A DNA stretch of 64,000 nucleotides from Thermodesulfobacteriota bacterium (GTDB lineage Bacteria > Desulfobacterota > RBG-13-43-22): contig JBFMBU010000030.1 in the NCBI GenBank assembly GCA_040755035.1, positions 41,045 through 105,044 on the forward strand, in the 5' to 3' direction. The notes beneath the pieces were generated by a model that made no database searches, was not told the DNA's origin, and worked only from the letters and a program-made list of their open reading frames with translations. Made by a program: the position numbers and the translations under genes. Below are positions 4,562 to 57,942 of this stretch, piece by piece (position 1 is the first letter of the stretch; each line of letters begins with the position of its first letter).

Positions 4562-5434
4562 CTACAGGGTTTTAATTTTCTGTTTGGCCTGTTTGGCCTG
4601 ATTGGATTTGGGGTATTCCTTAATGATTTTTTCCAGAAGCAAGCGGGCGCTGCCCTCATCTTTCAAACGTAAAAAGGACAAGGCTTGCTTAAACAAGGCC
4701 TCGGGAATCCATTTGCTTTTCGGATAGGACTTGATCAGTTTCTGGTAGGTGAGAATGGCCTCCTCCGATTCTTTCAGGCCATAAAGCGATTCACCGAGTC
4801 CAAATTGGGCCTCTTCAAGGTGCTTGCCCTTGGGGGCAGTCTTCAAATATTCTTCAAATTTTTTTCTGGCCCCCTCATAGGCCTGTTTTTTCAACAAGGC
4901 CTGGCCGGCTTCGAAAGTATCTTCTGCCGTCATCTTGACCGGCTCTTTTATTTCTTTGGGTTCTTCTTTGGTTTCCCGAGCGGTTTCTTTAGCTTTTTCC
5001 GGTTTGGGTCCCCCCTCTGTCGGAGAGGCCGGGGGAGCGGGGGGCTTCTCCAGTTTCTGCAGCCGGGCTTGTAATTCCTTTATTTCCTTGGCAATAGATT
5101 CACTGTATTGGGCTTGTTCTTTTTTTTGCTGGTGTTCCAGGGCCTCAATACGTCCCTGAAGTATCTGGAGTTGTACCTTCAGGGCTTCCTGCTGAGAAGT
5201 GGTGTTGGCCTGGTTTTGGAGGACCGGTTGTAGTTGGACCCCCACCCTTTTTTCCATTTGTTCCATGCGCTTGGACAAGGAAGCGTTATTTTCTTCAGTG
5301 GTTTCTTTGACCTGGTACATCGTCCTTTCCAGGCTCGAGGTCCTGTTGGCCAGGATGATGATATCCTCCCGGGCGGCACAGCCGAAAAGAAAAAGAAGCA
5401 CCCCTGTGCCAAGCAACCCGATTACTTTTTTCAC
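4562..5434 (-). CDS. cpoB: Tol-Pal system protein CpoB/YbgF (coiled-coil plus C-terminal TPR)
   Basis: Signal peptide, Q/E/K-rich coiled coil, C-terminal TPR-like YxKLIKxYPKS repeats, last gene of the tol-pal order. Confidence 0.7.
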   Translation of the reverse strand: MKKVIGLLGTGVLLFLFGCAAREDIIILANRTSSLERTMYQVKETTEENNASLSKRMEQMEKRVGVQLQPVLQNQANTTSQQEALKVQLQILQGRIEALEHQQKKEQAQYSESIAKEIKELQARLQKLEKPPAPPASPTEGGPKPEKAKETARETKEEPKEIKEPVKMTAEDTFEAGQALLKKQAYEGARKKFEEYLKTAPKGKHLEEAQFGLGESLYGLKESEEAILTYQKLIKSYPKSKWIPEALFKQALSFLRLKDEGSARLLLEKIIKEYPKSNQAKQAKQKIKTL

Positions 5435-14019: not shown

Positions 14020-14772
14020 ATGGATCCCATACAAGGCATTGGTTTTGATTTATTCAACACCCTGATTACCGCCGACCCCGCAGCTTTAGGTGAAGCCATG
14101 CACCGCATGATCGGCAGTCTCCGGGCAAGCGGGATAGGCTTAGAAATGGAACCCTTTCAAAAGGCCTACCGCGAAGCGGCCATGAGGTTTGTGGCGGAAA
14201 GTAAGGCGGAAGGCAAAGAGACCCACAACCGTTTTTGGATAAGCGCTGCCTTGAGGACCTTAGGCCGGGACCTGGGACCTGAAGACACAGCGGTTGCCAA
14301 AGCGGTGGAGGCCTATTTTTCCACTTTTTTGGATTATTGCCGTCTGATCCCTCAAACCCTGGAAATGCTTGCCCTGCTGAAGGGGAAGTTTCGCCTCGGG
14401 CTTTTGTCTAATTTCACCCATGCCCCGGCAGTAGAAGGACTTCTGAACAAATTTGGCCTGACCCCTTTTTTTGACACGGTCCTGGTGTCCGGGGCCTTGG
14501 GCTTTAGAAAACCCCACCCCCTGGTTTTCGAAAAGTTGGTCCAGGACTTGAGTTTAGAAAGGAAGCATATACTCTATGTCGGCGATAGCCTGGACCCTGA
14601 TGTCACCGGAGCGGTCCAGGCCGGATTGCGGCCGGTATGGATGACCTATGTACAGGACCATCACCTGCCGGTTTTTCCTCCTTACAGCGTCCCTTCAGAG
14701 CAAACCTTTTCCCGGGAATTGCTCAGGGTCTCCAATTGGGAAGAATTCCTTAACCTGCTGGGGCTGGCCTGA
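14020..14772 (+). CDS. HAD-superfamily hydrolase
   Basis: N-terminal FDLFNTL motif and C-terminal YVGDSLDPD motif. Confidence 0.7.
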   Translation: MDPIQGIGFDLFNTLITADPAALGEAMHRMIGSLRASGIGLEMEPFQKAYREAAMRFVAESKAEGKETHNRFWISAALRTLGRDLGPEDTAVAKAVEAYFSTFLDYCRLIPQTLEMLALLKGKFRLGLLSNFTHAPAVEGLLNKFGLTPFFDTVLVSGALGFRKPHPLVFEKLVQDLSLERKHILYVGDSLDPDVTGAVQAGLRPVWMTYVQDHHLPVFPPYSVPSEQTFSRELLRVSNWEEFLNLLGLA

Positions 14773-14828
14773 TTTTTTCCCTAAGGGGGGCAGCATAATA
14801 ATTGTTTCAAAAGATGGGCTCACAAAAA

Positions 14829-14968
14829 GTCGAATGCTGTCATTTCGAAAAGGGAACCGACGAGAAATCTTTTCGGTCGATTTCATCGACCTTAACAGGA
14901 GATCGGCAAGTCGGTCGGGCCGTTCGACTTGGTCGAACTAAGAAACCGACCGGTCGAAATGACAAAAA
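14829..14968 (+). promoter_or_regulatory. GTCGA-rich nested-palindrome element in the leader of the radical-SAM operon; terminal 11-bp inverted repeat TGTCATTTCGA...TCGAAATGACA
   Basis: Seen directly: tgtcatttcga (about 14838-48) and tcgaaatgaca (about 14954-64), plus internal IRs ggtcgat/atcgacc and gttcgac/gtcgaac. Confidence 0.4.
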
Positions 14969-15020
14969 AGGATTTTCCGACTTTCTACGAAACCATCTTT
15001 AGAAGGGTTAATCGTAGACG

Positions 15021-15911
15021 ATGGTTGAGATCGAAGATGAAATGGAATATGAGGGGATGGTCATCCGGCCTCCCAGCGAGGCCTATAGCATCCTGCTCCA
15101 GGTTACGGTGGGCTGCTCCCATAACAAGTGTTCCTTTTGCGCCACGTATAAGGACAAACGCTTCCGTATAAAAACGAATGAAAGAATTTTAAAGGACATC
15201 CTTTTTGCCTCCCAATATTGCCGGAGGCAGGACAAGGTCTTTCTGATGGATGGGGATGCCCTGATCATCCCCCAAAAACGGCTGGTCTGGATTTTGGAAA
15301 GGATTAGAGAACACCTTCCCTGGGTGAAAAGGGTGGGACTTTACGCCAATGCCAAAAGCATTGGTATGAAAAGCGATGAAGATTTAAAAACCCTCAAGTC
15401 CCTCGGCTTGGGGATTGCTTACCTGGGAGTGGAAACCGGCCATCCCGAACTGCTTAAAAAAATCAACAAGGGAACCTCCAGAGAAAACCTGATCCTTCAG
15501 GGTAAACGGTTAAAAAAAGCGGGGATCAAACTATCGGTTACTGTTTTATTGGGAATCGGCGGCCAGGAACTAACGCGGGAACACGCCTTGGCCACGGGAT
15601 CTTTGCTCAGCGAAATGGATCCGGATTTCGTCGGGGCCCTGACGGTCATGGTTCTGCCCAACACCCCCCTGGGCAAACAACTGACCGAAGGCCAATTCAA
15701 GCCCCTGACCGTTCCCGAGATCCTGACCGAACTGGGGGAAATGGTGGCCGCCACCCGGCTTACCCGGGGATATTTTTATTCCAACCACGCCTCCAACTAC
15801 CTGCCCTTGAAAATAAAATATCCCGAAGGCCAAGAGGCGGCCTTACATCTGATCGAAAAAGCCATACAGGGCGGGGTGGGCCTGCGTCCGGAATGGCAGC
15901 GGGGATTATGA
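15021..15911 (+). CDS. Radical SAM protein with non-canonical Cx4Cx2C cluster motif (CSHNKCSFC)
   Basis: GCSHNKCSFCA motif, glycine-rich SAM-binding region. Alternative start at Met13 (about 15057) has the better RBS (gagggg). Confidence 0.8.
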   Translation: MVEIEDEMEYEGMVIRPPSEAYSILLQVTVGCSHNKCSFCATYKDKRFRIKTNERILKDILFASQYCRRQDKVFLMDGDALIIPQKRLVWILERIREHLPWVKRVGLYANAKSIGMKSDEDLKTLKSLGLGIAYLGVETGHPELLKKINKGTSRENLILQGKRLKKAGIKLSVTVLLGIGGQELTREHALATGSLLSEMDPDFVGALTVMVLPNTPLGKQLTEGQFKPLTVPEILTELGEMVAATRLTRGYFYSNHASNYLPLKIKYPEGQEAALHLIEKAIQGGVGLRPEWQRGL

Positions 15912-18986: not shown

Positions 18987-19001
18987 GTTTCCATCCGGAA
19001 A
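18987..19001 (-). promoter_or_regulatory. Copy 1 of the recurrent motif GTTTCCATCCGGAA(A), about 155 nt upstream of the OMP/DUF4139 operon
   Basis: Exact 14-mer shared with 21585-21598 and 27111-27124. Confidence 0.4.
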
Positions 19002-21583: not shown

Positions 21584-21623
21584 AGTTTCCATCCGGAATT
21601 AAAATAATTTCCGGATGGAAACT
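21584..21623 (+). promoter_or_regulatory. Perfect 15-bp inverted repeat (agtttccatccggaa / ttccggatggaaact, 10-nt loop) ending 17 nt before the MFS start codon
   Basis: Seen directly; contains the recurrent 14-mer in both orientations. Confidence 0.5.
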
Positions 21624-21639
21624 ATAAGGAAAAAATACA

Positions 21640-22929
21640 ATGGCGGCACACCCAGAAAAAGAACCGGGAAAGGCCTGGTTGGTGGTCTTTGCCGGGACGG
21701 CGATCAATCTTTGCTTAGGGATGCTCTACGCCTGGAGCGTTTGGAAAAAGGCCCTGGTCGATAAAACCAAGGCCGATGCCGGAGAGGTCATGACCGGCAT
21801 CAATGCCGGTTGGGCCTATCTGACCGATACCCAGGGTACGGTAGCCTATTTCCTTTGCGGACTTATTTTTGCCGTATTCATGATTCCCGGGGGCCGGTTG
21901 CAGGACCGCTACGGTCCCAAAATCGGGGCCACCCTGGGCGGCCTTTCACTGGCGCTGGGTTGCATCATCGCCGGTTTGATGAAGAGTTATTTGGGACTGA
22001 TCCTCGGATTCGGTATTCTGGGAGGGATCGGTATGGGTTTGGGTTACGCGGCCCCGACCCCGGCAGCCCTTAAATGGTTTGGATCACACCGGCGGGGTTT
22101 GATCTCCGGAATCGTCGTCGGAGGTTATGGGGGTGCGGCCATTTATATCGCCCCTCTGGCCCAGTACTTAATTGAAAAATACGGCATCTCCGGCAGTTTC
22201 ATTGGTTTGGGGATCATCTTCGCCATCGTGGTCGTCATTGCCAGTCAGCTTTTATCCCAGCCGCCGGCCGGTTATGTACCGGTCGGACCTCCCCCGGGAA
22301 AGACGACCAAACAAAGTATGGCCGCCCAGTCAGAGGATTACGCCCCTACAGAAATGATGGCCAAATGGCAATATTACGCCCTGGTCCTGATGTTTATCGG
22401 CAGCGCCCAATCCGGACTCTTGGTTATCGCCAATGCCGCCCCCATCCTGGCCAAGACAGCCGGGAAACTGGAATTTTTTGCCCAGAACGCCTGGATCATC
22501 GCCGCTTATGGAGGGCTGATCAACGCCATGGGACGGGTGGGATCGGGGCTCTATTCGGACAAAATCGGCCGGGGCAATGCCTATACAGTCAACCTGCTTG
22601 TTTCAGCGGTTTTTTTACTGGCCACCCCTTTTATCATTCATATGGAAAGTATCCCCCTCTTATTCCTGGCCACCGGCGTGGCTTATTGGCAATACGGAGG
22701 AGGACTCTCCATTATGCCCGCTTTTACGGCTGATTTTTTCGGATCGAAAAATCTGGGGGTCAATTACGGACTGGTCTTTCTGGGGTGGGGCCTGGGATTC
22801 CTGATGCCTCTGATCGCCGGCTTCATTAAAGACAGCACCGGGTCCTACAACTTATCTTTCTATATCTCGGCGACTATTTTGATCGTGGCTGTTATTCTCT
22901 GCCGGCTTTTGAAGAAACCGGTTAAATAA
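21640..22929 (+). CDS. MFS transporter, oxalate/formate antiporter (OFA) family-like
   Basis: 12-TM MFS; OFA-like N-terminus (WLVVFAGTAINLCLGMLYAWSVW). Confidence 0.75.
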   Translation: MAAHPEKEPGKAWLVVFAGTAINLCLGMLYAWSVWKKALVDKTKADAGEVMTGINAGWAYLTDTQGTVAYFLCGLIFAVFMIPGGRLQDRYGPKIGATLGGLSLALGCIIAGLMKSYLGLILGFGILGGIGMGLGYAAPTPAALKWFGSHRRGLISGIVVGGYGGAAIYIAPLAQYLIEKYGISGSFIGLGIIFAIVVVIASQLLSQPPAGYVPVGPPPGKTTKQSMAAQSEDYAPTEMMAKWQYYALVLMFIGSAQSGLLVIANAAPILAKTAGKLEFFAQNAWIIAAYGGLINAMGRVGSGLYSDKIGRGNAYTVNLLVSAVFLLATPFIIHMESIPLLFLATGVAYWQYGGGLSIMPAFTADFFGSKNLGVNYGLVFLGWGLGFLMPLIAGFIKDSTGSYNLSFYISATILIVAVILCRLLKKPVK

Positions 22930-27110: not shown

Positions 27111-27126
27111 GTTTCCATCCGGAAAG
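27111..27126 (-). promoter_or_regulatory. Copy 3 of the recurrent motif GTTTCCATCCGGAAAG, about 30 nt upstream of the kinase start in the divergent kinase intergenic region
   Basis: Exact 14-mer match. Confidence 0.4.
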
Positions 27127-46369: not shown

Positions 46370-46393
46370 TTAACGTTTTGAAACTCAGTTTGT

Positions 46394-46513
46394 TTGTGTC
46401 ATTTCCGGTCGATCGAGCCGCTCGACGGTGTCGAGCTTTTGAAAAGGCTCCTCGTCAGGAGCCGTAAGTCGATCCTTAGTAAAGGTCCCCCTGCGGAGAC
46501 CGGATCGAAACAC
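46394..46513 (+). other. Second GTCGA-rich palindromic intergenic element (related to 14829-14968), includes hairpin ggctcctcgtcaggagcc
   Basis: Shares the TGTCATTTC and CGGTCGAT blocks with the first element, a ccgg(a)tcgaaa near the 3' end, and multiple short IRs. Confidence 0.35.
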
Positions 46514-46667
46514 CTGGATGCAAGTTTGGAGCTCTTGCCAGGACCCCTTTTTTATAAAGGAGCTAAGGGTCCGGGATTGGACAACTCTTAAAAAAAGATC
46601 CCCAGTCCCTCTGGGTCAATATAAAAAAAGACACTTAAAACGTAAAAAACAAAAGGAGGTTTCAAAA

Positions 46668-57803: not shown

Positions 57804-57942
57804 GCCTCGCTAAAGTGAGCTTGATGGCTGCCTACCCTGTCATTTCCGGAATCCAGGGCGAAGCCCCATGTCCAGACCGGCCCTTCAAAGCACCCTGGCC
57901 TTTGCTGAATTCTTGTTAAAAAATATGGGGAGGTAAAAATCC

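Follow-up and report, generated by a model that had tools for sequence, protein, structure and literature searches.

Introduction

Intergenic mosaic elements of Neisseria are built of RS units flanked by dRS3, and the bacterial interspersed mosaic elements (BIMEs) of enterobacteria are comparable mosaic arrays. Such arrays are also cited in the work on the Neisseria Transformation Sequence (NTS), CGTCATTCCCGCGMAVGCGGGAATCYRG, a unit that contains dRS3 (Chenal et al. 2025, PMC11893778). SsnA, a 94-amino-acid single-domain GIY-YIG nuclease, binds and cuts NTS solely as single-stranded DNA, and the cut is made on one strand, upstream of the unit by a few nucleotides; cleavage depends on the GTC that precedes the palindrome, and SsnA binding depends most on the C that follows it (PMC11893778). 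What is more, the ssn genes of many phyla are flanked by Ssn-related motifs (SRMs), for which the published search pattern is HGTCWYN(0-2)YYVSBRHN(0-5)WNVSBRGN(0-2)RNCYNB (PMC11893778). Another described class, the CGTC-tagged repetitive extragenic palindromes (REPs), often carries TGTC as its tag, starts its stems with A-T and ends in a short unpaired tail (Di Nocera, De Gregorio and Rocco 2013, PMC3733652). Their published stems have 8-9 perfect base pairs, loops of 4-5 nt and a CCA tail; they are intergenic, lack a dedicated transposase and occur predominantly as inverted dimers, whose 20-100-bp spacers may carry stem-loops of their own, and five phyla are listed for them (PMC3733652). The subject of the present work is a 127-bp segment, rich in GTCGA palindromes and bounded by 11-bp terminal inverted repeats, which lies upstream of a radical-SAM gene in a 64,000-nucleotide stretch of Thermodesulfobacteriota DNA (contig JBFMBU010000030.1; the whole stretch is called the window below, and positions are counted from its first letter).

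An initial annotation of this DNA had offered three readings of the segment: a structured, riboswitch-like RNA leader, an operator array, or a repeat resembling a miniature inverted-repeat transposable element (MITE). Of these, the repeat element alone survives, in part and not as a classical MITE. In our judgement the segment is likely a non-coding, REP-type mosaic repeat of the tagged-REP/SRM kind, solitary and partly decayed, and the family to which its ends belong appears to be a variant of the CGTC/TGTC-tagged REPs and SRMs.

Results

The segment occupies the 248-bp spacer between a HAD hydrolase gene and the radical-SAM gene (Table 1), as first described, and its 11-nt inverted repeats, TGTCATTTCGA at 14838-14848 and TCGAAATGACA at 14954-14964, are exact on both sides with 105 nt between them, which gives the 127 bp. 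The density of GTCGA/TCGAC in the window does peak here, with 6 occurrences per 150 bp as against 4 at the runner-up spot. Two of the three internal inverted repeats that had been proposed, GGTCGAT/ATCGACC (14875-81 and 14885-91) and GTTCGAC/GTCGAAC (14922-28 and 14932-38), are likewise exact, while the third, ccgacgag/ttcggtcg, pairs over only 5 nt, ACCGA/TCGGT. Structure beyond chance is also predicted: compared with shuffles, the RNA fold of the segment has z-scores of -2.9 (+ strand) and -3.7 (- strand), and both the inner hairpin and the neighbouring palindrome listed in Table 1 are present in the predicted folds of each strand. The palindrome is in fact bigger than first noted. Namely, an outer pair of arms, 14806-32 and 14978-15004, is complementary at 78% of its 27 nt, and the sequence 14806-15004 matches its own reverse complement with an nhmmer E value of 8.8e-6. 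While a lone 11-nt inverted repeat is unremarkable in 64 kb, the ensemble of these features is remarkable. Direct repeats flanking the segment, such as a target-site duplication, were looked for and none was seen, and no further copy of the segment was found within the window by blastn-short or nhmmer.

The same order of HAD-hydrolase and radical-SAM genes is present in relatives, which we denote by our own locus labels, L001/L002, L003, L124/L125 and L126. Their radical-SAM proteins share 95% of amino acids with that of the window in L001/L002 and about 84% in L126. The TGTC heads and the inner module described below are absent from the spacers of all of them (L001, L002, L003, L124, L125 and L126), the orthologous spacers being 92, 113 and 152 bp long in four relatives and 402 bp in L126, as against 248 bp in the window. 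As global alignment of the spacers was misleading, we used local alignment with shuffle controls, and found similarity to L001 and L003 to be restricted to 14773-14805, a limit that coincides with the start of the large palindrome. Because similarity to these two loci stops at 14805, we delimit a lineage-specific block of approximately 14806-15004, which would appear to have been acquired or retained only in this lineage. Two small hairpins in the spacers of relatives may be mentioned here: one in L001 at 4945-4985, ATCATTTTTTC...GCGAAATGAT, resembles a collapsed head pair, and a different one, TTTTCATTGCGGT...ACCGCAATGAAAA, is found in L126 at 1260-1300.

Rfam gave no match at the gathering score for the whole window and none at E<=10 for 14700-15100, and no promoter-like or terminator-like site was found. 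In lying upstream of a gene and having a stable predicted fold, the segment does resemble riboswitches and other cis-regulatory leaders; unlike them, it is not conserved with the gene, has no Rfam match and shares its sequences with loci where the genes are unrelated. The reading as a riboswitch or conserved cis-regulatory leader was therefore rejected: the segment is absent at the orthologues, Rfam is empty, and a 35-nt core stands beside unrelated genes elsewhere. A hammerhead or other ribozyme, considered for its CUGA/GAAA-like strings, was dropped as well, the core motifs being absent.

The ends of the segment belong to a repeat family of many phyla, and this is the part of the MITE-like proposal that holds. 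We scanned one genome per species with the pattern TGTCATTTCG-N90-120-CGAAATGACA, which imposes inverted pairs by design, and at least 120 contigs matched, as such pairs, where about 17 matches would be expected by chance at uniform base composition (an estimate). The matches listed come from Bacteroidota, Bacillota, Chloroflexota, Pseudomonadota, Planctomycetota, Acidobacteriota, Patescibacteria, Hydrogenedentota, Thermodesulfobacteriota and other phyla. They have in common an architecture that the search did not impose, namely TGTCATTTCGA - short GC-rich insert - GAGAAATC - variable centre - GATTTCTC - insert - TCGAAATGACA, in which a single unit reads TGTC-ATTTC-GA-(mini-hairpin)-GA-GAAAT-C and the tail after the palindrome is C-T-(T/C). 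In particular, GAGAAAT, which lies outside the search pattern, is found within 60 nt of the head in 271 of 321 arms; a C, again not imposed by the search, stands directly after it in 269 of these 271 units; and 321 of 333 arms have A at position 11. The left unit of the window shares all of these features. The G2, T3 and C4 of the tag are invariant in the family alignment, but these positions are fixed by the selection pattern. The left unit was detected by a generic tagged-hairpin scan as well, and an inner part of 13 nt, such as it has, is seen in 16 family units. The 3' half of the right unit, GATGAAATC (bottom strand, 14887-14879), is 66 nt away from its head and has one mismatch to the consensus GAGAAATC.

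Copies of the family are intergenic, 24 of 133 lying inside crude open reading frames (ORFs) as against 83% of random positions, and convergent gene pairs are over-represented around them. There are several copies per genome, with many in some genomes and extra copies within loci. Palindromy continues past the tags in 7 of 130 elements, compared with about 1% expected, and the window copy does likewise. Target-site duplications were found at none of the 130 elements, and in the 120 loci, of up to 8 kb each, neither a transposase nor any other protein recurs near the elements, bar the GIY-YIG cluster described below; no cluster of Y1-like transposases was found there either. The element has no match among PLSDB plasmids, the canonical 27-nt unit pattern is found in none of the IMG/VR viral contigs, and the family is essentially chromosomal. 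The head-pair pattern, for its part, is rare in IMG/VR (5 contigs, L247-L251, of 2.9 million). Searching the literature with the unit sequence strings and their variants returned primers only, and the sole Rfam match on fifteen family loci was the unrelated Flavo-1. A Parcubacteria copy (L065, 4323-4440) matches the Rfam plant microRNA family MIR9408 (RF04125) with 54.7 bits and E = 1.9e-8, below the gathering score, and this family may include, or resemble, bacterial repeat sequence. In L019, L060, L061, L077 and L079, one end of the element carries a tandem row in which the TGTCATTTCGA head, together with about 10-20 nt, is repeated 3-5 times at periods of about 18-31 bp, for which slippage or repeated cleavage and repair might be the cause.

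Each arm of the family is a real hairpin, supported by covariation. Namely, we aligned 52 distinct 27-nt units, picked without demanding complementarity, on the structure ....(((((..((...))..))))).. and found pairing in 93.1% of the cells, a result that 0 of 500 shuffles reach. Changes on both sides of a pair are seen in 49 cells, compared with 12.4 in the shuffles (again reached in 0 of 500), and 5 of the 7 pairs contain a compensatory change; in slid controls, with the partner moved by 1-3 columns, the paired cells fall to 11-62%. Pair 5-25 is AU in 52 of 52 units and pair 6-24 is UA in 48 of 52. Variant stems are kept complementary, as in ATCCT/AGGAT, ATTCC/GGAAT, ATTCT/AGAAT, ATGCT/AGCAT, ATCCC/GGGAT, ATCTC/GAGAT and ATGTC/GACAT. 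What is more, eight alternative stem 4-mers are fully complementary, and full complementarity is found in 35 of the 86 non-TTTC matches, where about 0.3 would be expected. The commonest insert is the 7-mer xy-GNA-y'x' (51 of 69 inner 7-mers), with stems CC/GG, GC/GC or AC/GT, and two conserved G.A/A.G oppositions stand between the two helices.

The family is linked to GIY-YIG genes. When the ORFs of the 120 loci listed were compared all-against-all, that is, in an unbiased manner, one small recurrent cluster emerged beside the elements, consisting of proteins of 96-111 amino acids whose only domain is a GIY-YIG domain (PF01541, E values between 1e-9 and 2e-17). It is present in 4 of the 120 loci (L010, L037, L038 and L077), where chance would give about 0.2 GIY-YIG genes in 120 loci of 8 kb, as estimated for roughly one gene per genome. 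The gene directly abuts units in three of the four (L077, L010 and L038); in L077 its start codon stands 2 nt after the end of a complete unit, and a head array follows its stop. Searches of the PDB and NCBIfam returned no informative name for these ORFs.

Set against the SRM description, the window has the HGTC tag as TGTC at 14838-41 (+) and 14964-61 (-), and the 3' C at 14869 (+) and, on the bottom strand, as the complement of g14879. The hairpin with conserved pairing that characterizes SRMs is likewise found in the family, with two G.A mismatches in its stem. It is because of these G.A pairs that the TGTCATTTCGA family fails the published SRM pattern, which has 0 matches in the window. 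Classical NTS-like units, for example CGTCATTCCCGCGAAAGCGGGAATCCAG, co-occur with the TGTCATTTCGA class in L038, L043, L077, L080, L099 and L114, of which L080 is a Thermodesulfobacteriota single-cell genome.

Between the two units lies a 35-nt module (Table 1), of which no other copy was found in the window. It recurs in three metagenome contigs, L140 (100% identical), L180 (97%) and L176 (97%), where the adjacent genes are unrelated; the metagenome scan with the 17-mer GGTCGATTTCATCGACC was itself too unspecific, true relatives making up 3 of 120 among the matches listed. The initial annotation had also claimed a related element at 46394-46513. Direct similarity between 14800-15010 and 46380-46560 is not significant (nhmmer E about 1-3), but the second element begins with the same TGTCATTTC head, and among the 120 metagenome contigs listed it has significant matches only in the same three, L176 (40 nt, 82%), L180 (28 nt, 89%) and L140 (55 nt, 76%). 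Since the head and the three contigs are common to both, the two elements, 14806-15004 and 46397-46556, appear to be different assortments of one lineage-specific module set. The second element contains the hairpin GCTCGAC-GGT-GTCGAGC followed by TTTT, and its 3' part ends in GCCAGGACCCCTTTTTTA. The window has 4 occurrences of the head TGTCATTTC, where 0.65 would be expected and 0 of 100 shuffles have as many, and all four sites lie between genes, as judged from ORF listings and sequence reads. A further module, AGCTCTYGCCAGRACCCCTTTTTTA, is found both on the 3' side of the second element and, in L180 and L140, flanking the 35-nt module (window 46528-46556, L180 1916-1943, L140 210-264), and includes a terminator-like stem plus a T-run.

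Table 1. Coordinates of the repeat features, the neighbouring genes and the related elements in the window, with the unit of the family for reference.
Feature	Position	Strand	Details
Whole lineage-specific block, imperfect palindrome of ~199 bp	14806..15004	.	Outer arms 14806-14832 and 14978-15004
Left hairpin unit, complete	14838..14870	+	Matches family consensus TGTCATTTCGA...GAGAAATCT; TGTC 14838-41, ATTTC 14842-46, GA 14847-48, 13-nt inner part with mini-hairpin GG-GAA-CC at 14852-58, GA 14862-63, GAAAT 14864-68, C 14869
Right hairpin unit, irregular	14879..14964	-	Generic tagged-hairpin scan; head exactly repeats the left head in inverted orientation; bottom strand TGTC 14964-61, ATTTC 14960-56, GA, 66-nt inner insert, GA-T-GAAAT-C (complement of 14887-14879)
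35-nt module TCGGTCGATTTCATCGACCTTAACAGGAGATCGGC	14873..14907	+	Hairpin GGTCGAT-TTC-ATCGACC, linker TTAACAGGAG, start of second hairpin
Inner hairpin GTTCGAC-TTG-GTCGAAC	14922..14938	.	Read from sequence
Palindrome CGACCGGTCG	14947-14956		Near the 14922-14938 hairpin; read from sequence
TGTCATTTCGA-class hairpin unit of the family			Sequence TGTCATTTCGACCGAAGGGAGAAATCC
Upstream gene, HAD-family hydrolase, 250 aa	14020..14772	+	Pfam PF00702, E = 3.5e-18
Downstream gene, radical-SAM protein, 296 aa	15021..15911	+	Pfam PF04055, E = 8.6e-18; 100% identical to an NCBI protein of a Thermodesulfobacteriota metagenome-assembled genome
Probable decayed relative (second element)	46397..46556	+	Head TGTCATTTC at 46397-46405
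Possible collapsed NTS-type unit TGTCATTTCCGGAATCCAG	57838..57856	+	TGTC-ATTTCC/GGAAT-CCAG; intergenic spacer

Discussion

How closely does the family resemble the systems described so far? With the CGTC-tagged REPs it shares the unpaired TGTC tag, the A-T start of the stem and a short tail, and its copies are likewise intergenic inverted dimers (the dimers being imposed by our search), spread over several phyla and free of a linked transposase. Among its phyla, Thermodesulfobacteriota, Chloroflexota, Patescibacteria and others are outside the five listed for those REPs. Intragenic CGTC-REPs are translated as VIPAKAGI and SFPRKRES (PMC3733652); these translations correspond to GTCATTCCCGCGAAAGCGGGAATC, a close analogue of GTCATTTCGAGCGAAGCGAGAAATC. 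With NTS and the SRMs, the family has in common a (C/T)GTC tag directly 5' of the hairpin, a stem that starts with A-T, a C right after the palindrome, an oriented and strand-asymmetric build, and many intergenic copies across many phyla. In L077, L010 and L038, units also flank genes for single-domain GIY-YIG (PF01541) proteins of about 100 amino acids, which are candidate members of CDD family cd10448, the family of the Ssn proteins. As in the mosaic elements of Neisseria and in BIMEs, short tagged palindromes here bracket repeat modules that recur in other combinations; unlike those, the window holds a single mosaic and not an array, and its modules are lineage-specific. Finally, the GTAG REPs and their inverted doublets (REPINs), which go with REP-associated tyrosine transposases (RAYTs) of the IS200-like Y1 type, are also doublets of tagged hairpins that form a larger hairpin, act as single-stranded DNA and occur between genes in many copies, whereas in the present family the tag is TGTC and not GTAG, and the linked gene is that of a GIY-YIG nuclease.

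A number of observations weigh against placing the segment in this company. The published SRM pattern matches NTS and NTSvar, and neither the canonical TGTCATTTCGA units nor either unit of the window, so that the family stands outside it. Namely, in place of a stem such as those of NTS, the family has ATTTC-GA...GA-GAAAT with two tandem G.A mismatches and, inside, the xy-GNA-y'x' mini-hairpin or a longer insert; compared with the CGTC-tagged REPs, it has 5 + 2 base pairs with two G.A pairs instead of 8-9 perfect ones, a GNA loop of 3 nt instead of 4-5, inserts of up to about 60 nt, and a tail that is CT and not CCA. Under standard DNA energy parameters the canonical unit reaches only -1.9 kcal/mol (z +0.4) and the left unit of the window is not folded at all, as opposed to -9 kcal/mol (z -5.5) for the Neisseria NTS. 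Here it should be noted that both GNA triloops, for example that of d(GCGAAGC), and tandem G.A pairs of the sheared type are unusually stable in DNA, and that the standard parameters presumably give no credit for this stability. As for the window itself, it holds no GIY-YIG, and thus no ssn-like, gene (tblastn at 1e-3) and a single clear copy in 64 kb, whose right unit is irregular; generic tagged hairpins are not enriched in it (21 as against 16.8 expected); and the 35-nt module occurs elsewhere without TGTC heads, with which it may be paired here by accident.

Would another explanation serve better? One could suppose that the 35-nt module and the adjacent hairpins make up a lineage-specific cis-regulatory RNA or small RNA, for example a leader with Shine-Dalgarno-like or GGA-containing sites for a binding protein, acting on the gene downstream. 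Hairpin 1 and the linker TTAACAGGAG are indeed near-invariant in four loci; the second hairpin is not the same in L180 as in the window but keeps its pairing, with one compensatory pair and, on the + strand, two G-T pairs; a same-strand gene follows the module at 110-190 nt in both cases that could be assessed; and the predicted RNA fold has the z of -2.9 given above. However, the four copies are almost identical and hence give no usable covariation, and their neighbours are unrelated, being the radical-SAM gene, a gene for a 128-amino-acid protein, a toxin-antitoxin pair and a PAS/LuxR regulator. With the module absent upstream of orthologous radical-SAM genes, no promoter- or terminator-like site, and Rfam empty at E<=10, we consider such an RNA unlikely. 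An operator array, in which the GTCGA palindromes would bind a dimeric transcription factor controlling the radical-SAM gene, would at least account for several short perfect palindromes upstream of a gene. Yet the half-sites differ from one another (GGTCGAT, GTTCGAC, CGACC), nothing of the kind is conserved in the orthologous spacers, and the repeat family and the module already explain the sequences. Since the repeat consensus (TTTCGA, CCGG/TCGA) explains the palindromes, the operator reading is not supported, and we regard it as very improbable.

The remaining two explanations concern the origin of the palindrome. A classical MITE would be a deletion derivative of an insertion sequence with a DDE transposase and TGTCATTTCGA terminal inverted repeats. 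The exact 11-nt terminal repeats, the tandem repetition of heads at the ends of elements in L019, L060, L061 and L079, and the presence of the element in this lineage together with its absence from relatives would all suit a MITE, and the TG...CA termini of the segment resemble the ends of IS3, IS21, Tn7 and Tn5053 elements. A reading of the termini as Tn7/Tn5053/IS21-like ends, of the form TGT...ACA, was dropped in view of the missing target-site duplications and transposase. The same evidence tells against the MITE: 130 elements are without a target-site duplication, no transposase family recurs in the 8-kb loci, and no parent element with shared termini is found there. What is more, the palindrome often runs on outside the termini, and each arm is a covarying hairpin, a feature for which transposase-bound terminal repeats have no need; a MITE is thus quite improbable in our eyes. 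Alternatively, the palindrome may have been made locally, through inverted duplication or template switching, with its likeness to the family arising by chance. Nothing in the repeat family corresponds to the outer arms, and the enrichment of flank palindromy (7 of 130 elements against about 1%) does suggest that palindromes grow in place. That said, two exact 11-nt heads plus GAGAAATCT at the family-typical distance have an estimated chance of <1e-4 for the window, the head 9-mer TGTCATTTC is enriched, and the interior module recurs in other contigs, so that chance likeness would surprise us greatly.

The segment thus consists of two inverted hairpin units, with their TGTC tags pointing outward, that bracket lineage-specific modules inside the imperfect palindrome of about 199 bp. 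If it is a mosaic repeat of the tagged-REP/SRM kind, it would most likely act at the level of DNA, each unit folding when the TGTC-tagged strand is single-stranded. A cognate small GIY-YIG Ssn nuclease, where one is encoded, would probably bind the unit and cut that strand a few bases 5' of the tag, and repeats of this sort would spread and decay as selfish or domesticated DNA. Without an Ssn nuclease the element would be neutral DNA. Should the radical-SAM gene be affected at all, this would be incidental, through a stable stem-loop formed in a read-through transcript. It is possible, if somewhat doubtful, that the unit represents a distinct, uncatalogued class of Ssn-related hairpins with a GIY-YIG clade of its own, present in about fifteen phyla including Patescibacteria, and that the heads in the window build Neisseria-like mosaics. 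The stem of such a class may rely on tandem G.A pairs and the GNA mini-hairpin, and not on a perfect palindrome.

The mosaic-repeat reading would also remove a false lead, as the radical-SAM gene would have no riboswitch-like leader and the palindromes upstream of it would be those of a decaying repeat absent from close relatives. The family is common in genomes and metagenomes and yet is not detected by the sole published SRM search pattern. Should the linked GIY-YIG proteins indeed cut single-stranded DNA at these units, the range of site-specific single-strand nuclease tools would grow, and one very frequent origin of intergenic hairpins and of spurious small ORFs would become clear.

Other repeats in the window deserve mention. 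The possible collapsed unit at 57838-57856 retains the tag and the CCAG tail and has lost its loop, and its tag and tail agree with those of NTS, while its head 9-mer is enriched in the window; a GGGC-GAA-GCCC mini-hairpin stands 3' of it. The sequence GTTTCCATCCGGAA occurs exactly 4 times in the window, at 18987-19000, 21585-21598, 21609-21622 (-) and 27111-27124, and with up to 2 mismatches it has 6 matches as against 1.2 expected (a count of 6 is reached in 0 of 100 shuffles). Inverted pairs of it stand in the spacers directly 5' of genes, for instance AGTTTCCATCCGGAA-N10-TTCCGGATGGAAACT about 20 nt before the start codon at 21641. In L176 and L140, GTTTCCATCCGGAA adjoins the 35-nt module; it is possibly an operator, or else one more repeat module.

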